Shown here one piece after another: positions 48,094 to 52,105 of a stretch of DNA of 64,000 nucleotides. The DNA is from Vulcanimicrobiota bacterium. Lineage in GTDB: Bacteria; Vulcanimicrobiota; Vulcanimicrobiia; Vulcanimicrobiales; Vulcanimicrobiaceae. The translations under genes were made by a program, and so were the position numbers. The notes below the pieces were generated by a model. It saw only the letters and a list, made by a program, of their open reading frames with translations, ran no database searches and had not been told where the DNA came from. Location: the NCBI GenBank assembly GCA_963777315.1, contig CAVZQC010000004.1:608001-672000 (forward strand). The letters are read 5' to 3'. Numbering within the stretch: position 1 is the first letter of the stretch; each line of letters opens with the position of its first letter.

Positions 48094-48558
48094 TTAATCA
48101 CTCTCCATTACACACGTGCACGCGACCGTATTTCTGTTCTCGCCGCAGGACGCGCAAAGGCCTTTACAGTCCGCTGCGCACAGCACGTTGAGCGGAACGG
48201 CGCCAAAAAGCAGTTGCGTCGCCAAATCCCGTACGTCCAATCGATCTCCGGCCAGCACGTTGCTCGTACCGAACGGATCGCTTTGCGCGTCCGGCCCGGT
48301 GTCGAGCTGCTCTTCAACGTCGACGTGCAATGTCCGATCGACGTCGGCCAAACATCGGTTGCACTCCCCGTAAAAGCTCGCGTCGATCGATCCCGCGATC
48401 TCCAGCATGTTCCCCGAAGACTGCATGGTGAGATGCACGGCTGCCGGAGCGAAGCGCACGCCCTCGAACGGCTCGAGCTCGACGTGCTGATCGAGCACGA
48501 GTCGCTGTCTGCCCCCTGCAAGCAAGCCGCCGACGTCAACTTTGTACGATGAAGCCAT
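48094..48558 (-). CDS. yceD: DUF177/YceD family protein
   Basis: CNRCL and LCAADCKGLCASCGEN motifs; upstream of rpmF. Confidence 0.93.
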   Translation of the reverse strand: MASSYKVDVGGLLAGGRQRLVLDQHVELEPFEGVRFAPAAVHLTMQSSGNMLEIAGSIDASFYGECNRCLADVDRTLHVDVEEQLDTGPDAQSDPFGTSNVLAGDRLDVRDLATQLLFGAVPLNVLCAADCKGLCASCGENRNTVACTCVMESD

Positions 48559-48666
48559 AACATAGAGGAAGGCCGCCCGGCGATTGGGGGGCCTTCTAAA
48601 CGCAGACATTGTAGACGGCGCGGAAGCGCCTTGTCAAACGACCGGCCCGGCGGGATTGAACTCCCG

Positions 48667-49392
48667 ATGAACACCATAACCAATCCGACGGCGTCCACTG
48701 CGGCCTTGGCCGGCCGCGGGGTCGCCTTCGCTCGGGACATTAGCGGCGCGGCAGCCCGGCACGGGCTCGACCCGCGCCTGCTGGCCGCGGTGGCGGCCCA
48801 AGAGACCGGCGGCCCCGGCAGCAATGCCGGCCACAATGTGGTGGGCGACGGGGGCCACGGTCACGGGCTCTTCCAAATCGACGACCGGTTCCACAGCTTT
48901 GCCGCCACGCCGGCCGCCATGGATCCTACGGCGAACGCCGATTACGCGGCGCGGATGATAACCGGACTGCTGAACCGGTACGGCGGCGACGTGCACAAAG
49001 CGCTCTCGGCATACAACGCAGGCGATCCGAACGCGCGCGGCACCGTAACCCAGTGGCCGGACGGCGCGCGTCTGGGTTACGCGGATTCGGTCTTGCGCCA
49101 TTATGCCATGCTCTCCGGGGGCAGCCCGCAAACATCCCCGAGCACGCCTTCCGTGCCCACGCACGATGCGCTATTGGATGAAATGAGCGCCGAAAGCGCC
49201 GCCGAGCAGAGCGGCGTCAATGCGCTGTCGTCGTTCGCGCTGCAGCTGCCCGCGATGCAGCAGCAGCCATCCTATTCGTATCGTCAGCTCGCGGGGTTGG
49301 ACGACAACGGCAACGGCAACCACGCTTCCGCGCTGGGCTCTATCGTCGATCCGGATTCGGACCCCGACGACGGCGCGGACCTTGTTCTTTGA
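48667..49392 (+). CDS. SLT-domain lytic transglycosylase with low-complexity acidic tail
   Basis: AVAAQETG (catalytic Glu), GLFQID and ALSAYNAG motifs. Confidence 0.9.
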   Translation: MNTITNPTASTAALAGRGVAFARDISGAAARHGLDPRLLAAVAAQETGGPGSNAGHNVVGDGGHGHGLFQIDDRFHSFAATPAAMDPTANADYAARMITGLLNRYGGDVHKALSAYNAGDPNARGTVTQWPDGARLGYADSVLRHYAMLSGGSPQTSPSTPSVPTHDALLDEMSAESAAEQSGVNALSSFALQLPAMQQQPSYSYRQLAGLDDNGNGNHASALGSIVDPDSDPDDGADLVL

Positions 49393-49439
49393 GATCGACT
49401 GCGTGATTGGCAACGCGACGAGACATGTGAGGAGCTGAA

Positions 49440-49820
49440 ATGGGTTTCAATATCGGTAGCGGCTTGATGGCCGGAATCCAAGGCTTTCTGGAAACGGGTA
49501 ATCCCGCAGCCGGAGTGGCAATGGGCGTAGCGGGCGGTCTGGCGGGCGGCGGTGCGACTGCCGGCAACCTCAGCGGCGCGCTCGGTAACGGGGAAATGGG
49601 TCTGCTCGATGCGCAAGACGAGCAGTTTCAAGTGCAGATGTACGCCGAGCAGATGCGCCATCAAGAGCAAATGCAGCTGCAGTCGCAAGCCTTCGATGAA
49701 ATGATGGACGAGAAATCAGAGCAGATGCGTGAAGTCAATACACTGCGCGACGTTCAGATGGCCCAGCGTAAAGCGGACAATCAGATCACCAAGAAGTTCA
49801 TCGAGTCGATCACCGAATGA
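49440..49820 (+). CDS. Hypothetical protein with Gly-rich hydrophobic N-half and Gln/Met-rich helical C-half
   Basis: RBS GAGGAG; 126-aa ORF. Confidence 0.85.
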   Translation: MGFNIGSGLMAGIQGFLETGNPAAGVAMGVAGGLAGGGATAGNLSGALGNGEMGLLDAQDEQFQVQMYAEQMRHQEQMQLQSQAFDEMMDEKSEQMREVNTLRDVQMAQRKADNQITKKFIESITE

Positions 49821-50023
49821 TCGACCGTACCAGGATGGCGCCGCGCGGCACGACGCCGAAAACGCCCGCCGACGGTGCGGTGGCTGCTCAGCAAGCGCAG
49901 TTCGACCAATCCATGGAGGAACGCGCGGAACTCGAACGCGAGGCCAACGTCCTGCGCGACATGATGCTCGCCCAGCTCAAAGCCGACGACGAGGTCCTCA
50001 AGAAGTACATCGCGATGATATAA
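49817..50023 (+). CDS. Small helical protein paralogous to the C-terminus of 49440-49820
   Basis: ATGA overlap; 20 of 40 C-terminal positions identical. Confidence 0.82.
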   Translation: MIDRTRMAPRGTTPKTPADGAVAAQQAQFDQSMEERAELEREANVLRDMMLAQLKADDEVLKKYIAMI

Positions 50024-50083: not shown

Positions 50084-50160
50084 GGGCCATTAGCTCAGTT
50101 GGTTAGAGCGCATGCTTGATAAGCATGAGGTCCCAAGTTCGACCCTTGGATGGCCCACCA
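50084..50160 (+). tRNA. tRNA-Ile(GAT)
   Basis: Cloverleaf; anticodon arm CATGC-TTGATAA-GCATG; encoded CCA. Confidence 0.96.
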
Positions 50161-50167
50161 TTGCGGC

Positions 50168-50198
50168 AGAGAAGCTCCCCGGGCGCGGGAGCTTTTCT
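50168..50198 (+). terminator. Intrinsic terminator, probably bidirectional
   Basis: AAGCTCCC...GGGAGCTT-TTCT between convergent genes. Confidence 0.65.
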
Positions 50199-52105
50199 CA
50201 TATCACGCGGATAATGGCCATCATGCCGTGATCTTCGTGGTACAGCATATGGCAATGGAACACGAACGTACCGCGCGGCACGTGGCGGAAGTCGACCAGC
50301 ACCTTGGTAATGCTCGGACGCATCAGCGGGGAATCCGGATCCTTGCGGTTGGGCATCAGCTTTCCGACGGGCACGAACACCACGTCGTTCGTCATGGGCA
50401 TCCCGCCAAGACCGTGCTCCAGCACGAACGCCATTTGATGAATGTGGAATGCGTGCGCTTCCAAAGTCGTGTTGATCAGATACCATCCTTCGATCGTGCC
50501 GGCTTTTACGGTGACGTCGGCATTCCGCGGAATCATGCCGCCCGCAGAGAAGACCGGCCAGAACGAATGTTCTTGGAATCGAGGATTCGTCGTGTCGGTG
50601 ACGTGATATGAAAGATGCGCCGGATTCTTTTTTGAAACGCTCGGCAGCAGATATTCCGTAAACGTGATCGCTCTTCGGTGAATCGCCCAGGGATGCGTGT
50701 GCGCGAAGGCGACAAGGCGCGCAGCAGGCGTTTGCGCGACCTGCACCGGCACGGAGGCGACGGTTTCGGGTTGGGCTTTGCCGTCCGTAGCCGCTTGAAT
50801 CCGTACAAGTTCGTGCCGCATTTGAAAGAACGCTTCCGAACCTTCACAAAAATGCTCGCTGGAGAGCGTCAATTCTTCGCCCGGCACCATGGTCAGCAGC
50901 ACGGCTGCGCGAGACGACGGTGACAGCATCACCTGATTCATCGAAACATAACGCGCTAAGGGATGCGCCGCATCGCCCGTAACCGGGATCCCGTCGAGTG
51001 CGACGACTCGCAGTGCTTGCAGCCGTCCGCGCGCATCCCGCAGCTGCAGCGCTTTCGGGGAATCGGACGTCGCGTTCACGAGCCGGAGCAGCTGCGTTCG
51101 TCCGGCGGGCAAACGCAACGACGCAGGCGTGGCGGCTCCGTCGATGTCGAGCAGAGGCTCGGGCCCTACGCCGTCGCAACCGTCGGGGTTGAGCCGGACG
51201 GAGCCGGCTTGCACCGGGGTGCTGACCGGCCACGGCGGCGGATCGAACGGATTGTAAGCAGGCGTGGGGCCGGGTTTAAGCGCTTTTACGTCGGCTTCGG
51301 CAGCATCGTCGAGCGCGGACGTGTCGGGAACGAACTCGTTGTCGAAAATAACCGGCAAGCGGTACCGCAGCACGATGAGATGTTCGTCCGACGGCGCAAG
51401 CTGCGGCGCTTTGGGATCGACGATCCACGCACCGGACAAGCCGCCTGCGACTTGCGTGCGAGACATACCGTGCGCGTGCGGGTGATAAAAATAGGTCCCG
51501 GGAGGCTGCGTGCGCGGTATCGTTATGGAGTATTCGCACGCGTGCATCGGCGTGCTCAGCGTCGAGAGAAAGACGTTCTCCTGGTCGGCCGGCCCTTGAA
51601 AGCCGTGCAGGTGGATGTTCGTATCGAGCGGGGGCAAGTGGATGTACCGATCGCTCATCGTATGGTTTAAATAGCCGACATAGCGGACCACCGGACCAGC
51701 CGGCATCGGCATGGGCATGCACTTGGGAATCGCGCCGGCAGCAACGTGCTCGCCCGCGCTTTGTCCCGCGATGTCGTTGACGATGCGAAGCGCAAAATGC
51801 TCGCCGGGACGCACGTGGACCGCGGGAGGCACCGTCTGCACTGCGCCGTGCCAGGAATACCTGTAGCAGAATCGTTCACCGTCGCGGTGAACGGCCAAGA
51901 TGAGCTCGTGCTCGCCGCGGTCGTTGAGCGGCAGATCCCGAACGTCGACGTTGGGCGGTTCGATGATGTCGTGCGACTGCGGGGGCGGCGCGCACGTGGA
52001 AACGTGCCGCAGGGGAGAAGCGACGGCCGCGGGTTGTGCGGCGATGGCACCCGGCCAAGCTGCAGCAAACACGAGCGCCGGCCAAACGATAAGGCGGATG
52101 CTCAC
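50198..52105 (-). CDS. Multicopper oxidase
   Basis: HLHG, YHPHAHG, HAFHIHQ and HCHMLYHEDHGMM motifs; signal peptide. Confidence 0.93.
   Translation of the reverse strand: MSIRLIVWPALVFAAAWPGAIAAQPAAVASPLRHVSTCAPPPQSHDIIEPPNVDVRDLPLNDRGEHELILAVHRDGERFCYRYSWHGAVQTVPPAVHVRPGEHFALRIVNDIAGQSAGEHVAAGAIPKCMPMPMPAGPVVRYVGYLNHTMSDRYIHLPPLDTNIHLHGFQGPADQENVFLSTLSTPMHACEYSITIPRTQPPGTYFYHPHAHGMSRTQVAGGLSGAWIVDPKAPQLAPSDEHLIVLRYRLPVIFDNEFVPDTSALDDAAEADVKALKPGPTPAYNPFDPPPWPVSTPVQAGSVRLNPDGCDGVGPEPLLDIDGAATPASLRLPAGRTQLLRLVNATSDSPKALQLRDARGRLQALRVVALDGIPVTGDAAHPLARYVSMNQVMLSPSSRAAVLLTMVPGEELTLSSEHFCEGSEAFFQMRHELVRIQAATDGKAQPETVASVPVQVAQTPAARLVAFAHTHPWAIHRRAITFTEYLLPSVSKKNPAHLSYHVTDTTNPRFQEHSFWPVFSAGGMIPRNADVTVKAGTIEGWYLINTTLEAHAFHIHQMAFVLEHGLGGMPMTNDVVFVPVGKLMPNRKDPDSPLMRPSITKVLVDFRHVPRGTFVFHCHMLYHEDHGMMAIIRVI

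Follow-up and report, generated by a model that had tools for sequence, protein, structure and literature searches.

In flagella, the class III genes are expressed late, with flagellin driven by sigma-28 and exported after the FliK/FlhB switch. The filament-less hook-basal bodies of Buchnera and the flagellar remnants of Chlamydia are flagellum-derived export structures that have neither motor nor flagellin. The injectisome is held to have derived from the flagellum once, an intermediate with an intact rod not being seen today, according to the portion of PMC3459982 available to us, which also uses the absence of flgB, flgC and fliE as a criterion for a non-flagellar type III secretion system and describes the Myxococcus non-flagellar system as having no FlgB/C/D/E/K, FliE/G, FlgH or SctF. 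The Myxococcus T3SS* is secretin-less and is used together with Tad pili against other bacteria (PMC10469934, in the text accessible to us). Hrp pilins, the subunits of another type III filament, are 66-113 aa long and almost all-helical, with little sequence in common (PMC3973906, in excerpt).

Here we describe a locus within a 64,000-nucleotide stretch of DNA (the window) from a genome, G000, that belongs to the Vulcanimicrobiota/Eremiobacterota by the source names of its homologues. The locus encodes a lytic transglycosylase (SLT) and two small proteins, B and C, whose retention and decay largely follow those of a second export machine, for which the genes lie at other loci. We propose, with a probability of about 0.6, that B and C are late-exported filament subunits of a flagellum-derived, non-injectisome secretion pilus; that the trio belongs to the machine in some role is highly probable. 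The literature searched contained no published description of the machine or of B and C; the supplements of PMC9259500, a study whose available text reports a secretion-system scan on a sister family, lie outside that scope. Throughout, a prime (FlhA', FliA', flgG') marks the copy that belongs to the second, flagellum-derived machine.

A gene trio between yceD and tRNA-Ile

The three co-oriented genes occupy the positions given in the initial annotation, between yceD and a tRNA-Ile gene. The SLT (P0001, 241 aa; 48667..49392, +) is followed by B (P0002, 126 aa; 49440..49820, +), which combines a Gly-rich variable N-terminus with a conserved long C-terminal helix, and by C (P0003, 68 aa; 49817..50023, +), in which a Pro/Ala-rich variable N-terminus precedes the helix shared with B. 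The ATGA overlap reported for B and C is borne out, C starting at 49817 and B ending at 49820. On the upstream side, yceD (48094..48552, -; Pfam YceD, E 5e-16) is a divergent neighbour outside the module that adjoins it in most loci of families f1 and f2 and serves as a landmark of synteny; on the downstream side, tRNA-Ile(GAT) (50084..50160, +) is a second landmark, by which the decayed locus of one relative, G012, was located. The description of a compact trio holds insofar as synteny is kept in relatives, but the trio is not invariant: the SLT stands before B in 18 of 30 loci and is missing from the other 12, C follows B in 25 of the 26 loci of f1 and f2, and in family f3 one B-like gene lies elsewhere, beside rpmE. 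Among the loci examined in this class, the locus never adjoins the export cluster. Right behind tRNA-Ile, the window carries a multicopper-oxidase-like gene (50198-52105, -) that is absent from the other 29 loci and is likely a later insertion.

Pfam confirms that the first protein is an SLT: the domain covers residues 27-124 (PF01464, E 9.5e-10, 38.5 bits against a cut-off of 21.3). It includes Glu46, which, going by its motif, we take to be the catalytic residue; the motif is conserved across 42 loci, and the catalytic role is a prediction from sequence. The tail of the protein is of low complexity, with a conserved short motif and an acidic end. One tail segment (49174..49227, +) had been noted as a weak echo of the B/C helix and does lie in the same register, but it aligns no better than shuffled columns (score 9.2-9.3 against a shuffle maximum of 11.7), and homology of the tail to the helix is rejected. 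In some relatives a small ORF of its own, located between SLT and B, encodes the tail module (L062:4999-5280 in G123, L154 in G118, L069 and L080); in G123 its N-terminus is like that of B, and the module may represent a third subunit.

Proteins B and C

The claim that B and C share 20 identities over an ungapped 40 residues is correct, and 300 shuffles of C gave no more than 12. Profiles of the two families match at 99% probability over 48 columns. The shared helix corresponds to residues 85-124 of B (49692..49811, +) and to 49901-50020 (+) in C. Column conservation in B increases along the protein, from 0.47 in residues 1-50 to 0.61 in residues 51-84 and 0.79 in residues 85-124, and C varies between 60 and 120 aa in relatives. 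B is found in 37 of 41 relatives and, by profile, in 77 of the 79 genomes of the class; the same B/C profile search gave no match in 51 genomes of other classes. A dN/dS of about 0.02-0.1 indicates purifying selection. A profile of the helix searched against 1.84 billion representatives retrieved 233 clusters at E<=0.001, and in nearly all of the best 150 of these the helix lies at or near the C-terminus.

The 3' end of the shared-helix segment of B is an integration site in some relatives, where mobile elements sit inside the gene (L065 in G099, L069/L070 in G107, L067/L068 in G127 and L013 in G007) and bring along a replacement 3' end of B. A serine-recombinase-like ORF is present in the elements of G099 and G107, B is truncated by the element in G107 and G127, and in G099 a second copy of C lies 58 kb away. 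Either a simple hot spot of integration or a switch controlled by excision could account for this.

Searches of Pfam, NCBIfam and PDB sequences gave no useful match for B or C, the PDB sequence search with both profiles returning nothing, and neither protein was found to belong to a known cytoplasmic family. A WXG100-type pair was considered and dismissed on the basis of the missing WXG motif and Pfam match. No match at E<=1 was seen to the needle, HrpA and HrpE families (PF09392, PF09589 and PF28047), and needle or pilin families are absent from the 25 families shown for 44 members of the B/C family; as a positive control, SctF was recovered by the same family search at 2e-10. The B/C profile compared with one SctF gave 1%, Foldseek against the PDB found nothing for B or for the X proteins described below, and B and C, as proteins of 60-140 aa, have no flagellin match. 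The homology to SctF, SctI or HrpA that had been suggested thus finds no sequence or Foldseek match; since Hrp pilins themselves share little sequence, a missing match is expected even for an analogue.

The SctF monomer is a helix-turn-helix hairpin, and a hairpin of the SctF/SctI/HrpA kind had been anticipated for B. Instead, the monomer is predicted as one long helix (residues 41-125; pTM 0.26, a low global confidence), and monomer models of polymer subunits can mislead. The predicted complex of four copies of B residues 41-126 scores 0.31 against a mark of 0.42 and is given no weight here. By a crude charge and hydropathy test, no Sec-type signal is evident in any of the three proteins, as the initial annotation had stated: the first 8 residues of SLT and B contain no K or R, and the best 19-residue hydropathy is 0.8 for SLT, 1.2 for B and 0.4 for C. 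B and C have in common with pilins that they are small and helical, with a variable N-terminus, a conserved C-terminus and no evident Sec signal. B is a candidate major filament subunit, and C a candidate minor, adaptor or tip subunit.

The locus resembles the Hrp pilus systems (HrpA, HrpE, HrpY and NopA, with SLTs of the HrpH/EtgA/IagB type) in its small helical subunits with a conserved C-terminal helix, in the lack of an evident Sec signal and in the co-occurrence of a type III gate and an SLT. The likeness extends to the nearest neighbours in a protein language model (Atlas), which are HrpA pilin (0.89) and HrpE-like (0.85) for B, and HrpE, needle or HrpA clusters in all five named rows shown for C (0.84-0.89); scores below 0.9 are, by the tool's own mark, leads only. 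It differs from them in that B and C have no detectable sequence match to the Hrp pilins, the machine is flagellar by gene content and phylogeny, no secretin, SctD or translocon was found for it, the trio is unlinked from the export cluster in this class, and the organism is a soil bacterium with no known host.

A second, apparently motor-less export machine

G000 contains two genes each for FlhA, FliP and FliF. One export set is that of a full flagellum (on C4), and the second is a cluster at C6:30566-48785. In order, the genes of this cluster are flgB-like, flgC, fliE, fliF with a FliG-middle-like tail, fliH, fliI, an SLT, an aspartyl protease, fliK-like, a short flgE/F-like gene, fliM-like, fliN, fliP, metF, fliQ, fliR, flhB and flhA. 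A third locus contains flgF', flgG', a rod-binding (FlgJ) fragment and a FliA (sigma-28) paralogue. The gene order of the second cluster is kept within the class and is found again in other classes. FlgC is recognized by TIGR01395 (E 5e-15), and FliE, FlgF/G and an ORF in the flgB position are present too. Thus the type III-like export apparatus that had been expected elsewhere in the genome exists, as a second set of homologues of SctRSTUV, SctN, SctJ and SctQ, but it is not the non-flagellar sctRSTUVN machine that was envisaged: it has flagellum-specific rod genes, and in trees FlhA' falls with the flagellar FlhA proteins. Two trees were built, a quick one of 29 rows and a second one that left out 6 of these and added 3, with few reference sequences and a long branch. 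The FlhA' proteins of the phylum make up a single clade, nested among flagellar FlhA and separate from three SctV; its support of about 92/91 comes from the second tree, read after correcting a one-node label shift from re-rooting.

Flagellin occurs in 16 of 41 genomes, and the second type of FliF in 37 of 41. B and the second machine are both kept in 22 of the 25 flagellin-less genomes, so the machine stands without a flagellum. FliG_C and FlgH were not found in any of the four flagellin-less genomes tested, and a borrowed L-ring is on this ground rejected for flagellin-less carriers. A search of the second cluster revealed no MotA/MotB and no dedicated secretin SctC, and the four secretins of G000 all lie in type IV/Tad-type pilus clusters. 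With flagellar rod genes, a flagellar FlhA and no secretin, the machine falls outside the injectisomes, and, having neither its own flagellin nor a torque domain or L-ring, it falls outside the flagella too.

The machine has the flagellar FlhAB, FliPQR, FliI/H, FliF, FliM/N, FliE, FlgB/C/F/G, FlgJ fragment, FliK and FliA, and its putative late genes resemble flagellar class III genes: they are unlinked, a sigma-28-like motif stands before them, and some lineages have several copies. In contrast to a flagellum, the flagellin-less carriers have no FliG C-terminal torque domain or FlgH, the FliF' tail is FliG-middle-like, and the hook gene is reduced to a D1-type domain. The needleless T3SS* of Myxococcus is likewise a secretin-less type III system of a free-living organism, and G000 too has several Tad-type clusters; unlike T3SS*, the machine described here keeps a flagellar rod, has candidate filament subunits and sits on the flagellar branch. 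It shares with the Buchnera and Chlamydia structures a flagellum-derived export apparatus without flagellin and apparently without motor, but is a conserved duplicate beside a working-type flagellum, phylum-wide in free-living bacteria, with its own sigma factor and candidate substrates.

Several further features of these genomes were observed. FliF' (G000 C6:46497-47960) ends in a FliG-middle-like segment, that is, as a FliF-FliG fusion without the torque domain, in f3 as well. The protease gene encodes a double aspartyl-protease domain (G000 C6:42635-44152) and lies within the cluster in f1 and f2; in four of the six genomes with the cluster deleted it has been retained, which makes it a probable passenger. 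A conserved ORF of 93-104 aa with no Pfam match lies behind fliA' (G000 C6:145417-145713; L115:10583-10897) and is a candidate regulator or further component. The 2.8 Mb of G000 include three Tad/Flp pilus clusters (C4:730-742 kb, C2:392-402 kb and C2:634-644 kb). One genome of the class, G028, contains a complete canonical Hrp2-like injectisome with SctV, secretin and HrpB2 (L056/L057, C346 120-153 kb), which we ascribe to transfer or bin contamination.

Decay of the trio in genomes that lost the export cluster

The export cluster is deleted in place in six genomes (G012, G019, G072, G118, G105 and G130), with metF left standing in all six and the aspartyl protease in four. Four of them have lost the trio or carry it damaged, and two keep it intact. 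In G012 a C pseudogene occupies the usual position ahead of tRNA-Ile, and no B, SLT, flgG' or fliA' was found. In G019 (unpublished), B, C and flgG' were not found, in a locus that ends at a contig edge. G072 has a Leu102Pro change at a nearly invariant leucine in the helix of B, a promoter displaced from the trio by an insertion, and no detectable flgG' or fliA'; in G118, a frameshift interrupts B, and flgG' is broken in two close to its end. G105 and G130 lack the export cluster and have both the trio and flgF'G'-fliA' intact; as the latter genes would be useless without the gate, these two deletions look recent. The state of the trio mirrors that of the unlinked rod/sigma operon in all six genomes, which, being related, are not independent samples. 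A clean two-by-two co-loss seen with G012 and G019 was revised, given that four more cluster-less genomes carry B and C.

B is also broken in some genomes that have the machine. Frameshifts, possibly read errors, affect it in G001, G006 and G015, and it is truncated at the 3' end in G007, G107, G127 and probably G119 and G136, all with at least part of the machine present, and the frameshift in G118 is therefore weak evidence. In G018, which has the machine, B is missing, as is yceD; this and the other mismatches between B and machine (G008, G011, G017, G018 and G036) fall on assembly gaps. Overall, the initial view of an export module of an envelope-spanning machine with its core encoded elsewhere is partly supported: none of its three refuting conditions came true, and trio and export apparatus are lost together, whereas its assignment to the injectisome lineage, with homology to SctF, SctI or HrpA, is unsupported.

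A shared promoter-like motif

A motif, CT(A/T)G(A/T)C-N13/14-GCG(T/G)GAT, precedes SLT or B. The window has one copy before SLT (CTTGTC-N14-GCGGGAT; 48630..48656, +) and a second directly before B (CTTGTT-N14-GCGTGAT; 49381..49407, +), which rank 1 and 4 of 2812 upstream regions. G000 and G001 were kept out of motif training for this ranking of 2812 genes, and these two ranks are expected from orthology; in the training set, 43 of 47 regions score >8. In f1, the upstream box of the first copy overlaps the -35 element of an opposite-strand, sigma-70-type yceD promoter (TTGACA at 48637-48632, TACAAT at 48613-48608). The motif also occurs before the SLT of the export cluster, ranking 12 of 2812 in G000 and present in 4 of 4 f3 genomes; in f1/f2 genomes other than G000 it was not found there. 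Against the f3 background, the six top rows that were kept comprise three B genes (from the training set), two cluster SLTs and one unrelated gene, the remaining 6 of the 12 top rows having been dropped as locus-edge artefacts.

The spacing of the motif resembles that of sigma-28 promoters, and we infer that it may be read by the sigma-28 paralogue FliA'. It differs from the canonical box before the flagellin gene of G000. Several promoters of the X genes (see below) also read as TTGACA-N17-GATAAT, and so the motif could be a sigma-70 variant.

Helical genes behind flhA in sister classes

In other classes, the flhA of the second system is directly followed by small genes, here called X, for helical proteins in which the N-terminus varies and the C-terminal helix is conserved; longer Pro/Gly-rich paralogues accompany them. 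Of 25 genomes, 24 carry X, in 2-9 copies each that often lie in tandem, and tandem copies of the short genes are near-identical; G078 has the machine and no X. X genes lie behind flhA in 5 of 11 second-system loci as against none of 9 other flhA loci, and in 16 of the 20 genomes for which both coordinates were available, they follow a flhA at a distance of up to about 6 kb. The motif matrix, trained on the present class alone, scores 12 of 30 X genes at >=8, compared to 8 of 276 background genes; these counts include kin and are not independent.

The X protein is modelled as a single helix (residues 3-86). In a flush C-terminal alignment, X matches B/C with P 0.0013 and 18% probability, the score of 19.5 exceeding the maximum of 15.3 in 60 column shuffles; with most pairs of X and B/C subfamilies falling within the shuffle range, the comparison is only suggestive of homology.

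Two other observations were made in sister classes. An unnamed conserved ORF of 80-110 aa lies directly behind the second-system flhA (L145:9356-9598, with matches in L127, L136, L138, L143 and L144) and is a candidate chaperone or export regulator. In family f10 (G047, G052, G056 and G061), each genome has seven to eight FHIPEP-family matches, several of them outside any export cluster (L131, L139 and L140).

Alternative interpretations

FlgM is sigma-28-driven and exported, with a variable N-terminus and a helical C-terminus, and B and C would share these traits. It is conceivable, if rather unlikely, that B and C serve the same machine as something other than a filament, namely as FlgM-like anti-sigma factors, membrane-inserting translocator-like proteins, effectors or a cap, all of which the co-loss, linkage and promoter evidence would fit equally well. 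No flgM is seen beside fliA', as the anti-sigma version would have it, but B and C have no FlgM match. The translocator version draws on the Gly-rich hydrophobic stretch in B, which is absent from the f3 and X proteins, and on weak matches of 7 of 44 B-family members to the translocator family SctB2 (best E 0.0043). The near-identical tandem X genes are better suited to a bulk structural subunit, a flagellin-less machine would otherwise have no distal subunit among the genes examined, and the Atlas neighbours are pilins and needles; each of these points favours a filament.

We regard it as improbable that the trio is unrelated to the machine and forms an operon for envelope, stress or dormancy functions that is specific to the class and controlled by an alternative sigma factor, its co-loss reflecting general genome reduction. 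G012 and G019 are indeed small genomes (1.9 Mb), but the match between decay of the trio and of the rod/sigma operon holds in 6 of 6 cases, genomes of normal size included. Likewise, the trio is unlinked to the cluster in this class, is intact in G105 and G130 and is without its SLT in many loci; against this, the motif precedes the SLT of the cluster, and in other classes X genes, weak as their homology to B/C is, have the same motif and layout inside the cluster.

Lastly, that B and C are true SctF/SctI/HrpA homologues of a canonical injectisome is very improbable, and for the machine this reading is already largely refuted by gene content: the Atlas neighbours, a weak match of the SLT to IagB (E 1.9e-4, far under cut-off) and the slightly better scores of FliI' and FlhB' with Sct than with flagellar models favour it, whereas flgB-like, flgC, fliE, flgF, flgG, fliM, fliN and fliA mark flagella (PMC3459982, in the part available), FlhA' lies with flagellar FlhA, there is no dedicated secretin and no hairpin fold, and a canonical injectisome is seen in only one genome of the class, G028.

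A model for a putative flagellum-derived pilus

In the secretion-pilus reading that we prefer, FlhA'B'-FliP'Q'R', FliI'/FliH', FliF' and a reduced C-ring would form a non-rotating basal body. A rod would be built from FliE', FlgB', FlgC', FlgF', FlgG' and the short FlgE/F-like protein, with FliK' as length ruler and switch. After rod assembly, FliA' would transcribe the SLT-B-C operon. B would then pass the channel unfolded, by way of its variable N-terminus, and polymerize through its C-terminal helix into a thin pilus replacing hook-junction and flagellin, with C as a minor or tip subunit. The signal-less SLT would be exported in the same way and open the cell's own wall or that of a neighbour. 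Our searches revealed no outer-membrane exit, neither an L-ring nor a dedicated secretin, and the structure may not reach beyond the periplasm, or it may make use of a Tad secretin.

More tentatively, the machine may represent a phylum-wide second, independent conversion of a flagellum into an injectisome-like device, with a new family of single-helix pilins (B/C, and X in the sister classes) and with the SLT and other cargo delivered to neighbouring bacteria. On this equally tentative broader view, a duplicated motor-less basal body would have kept the rod and the sigma-28 timing, and hook and flagellin would have been replaced.

A cultured member of the phylum has no flagellin and no flagella, pili have been seen on it, and the word secretion is absent from the portion of its description available to us (PMC9758169); as such a strain exists, the question may be open to experiment. 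If the preferred reading is true, a phylum-wide, motor-less duplicate that has a flagellar rod, a dedicated sigma factor and a helical subunit other than flagellin would offer a present-day counterpart to the transition from flagellum to injectisome, and the way in which a flagellar export gate gains a new filament would become testable. The abundant soil Eremiobacterota would then have a previously unrecognized contact or secretion organelle.
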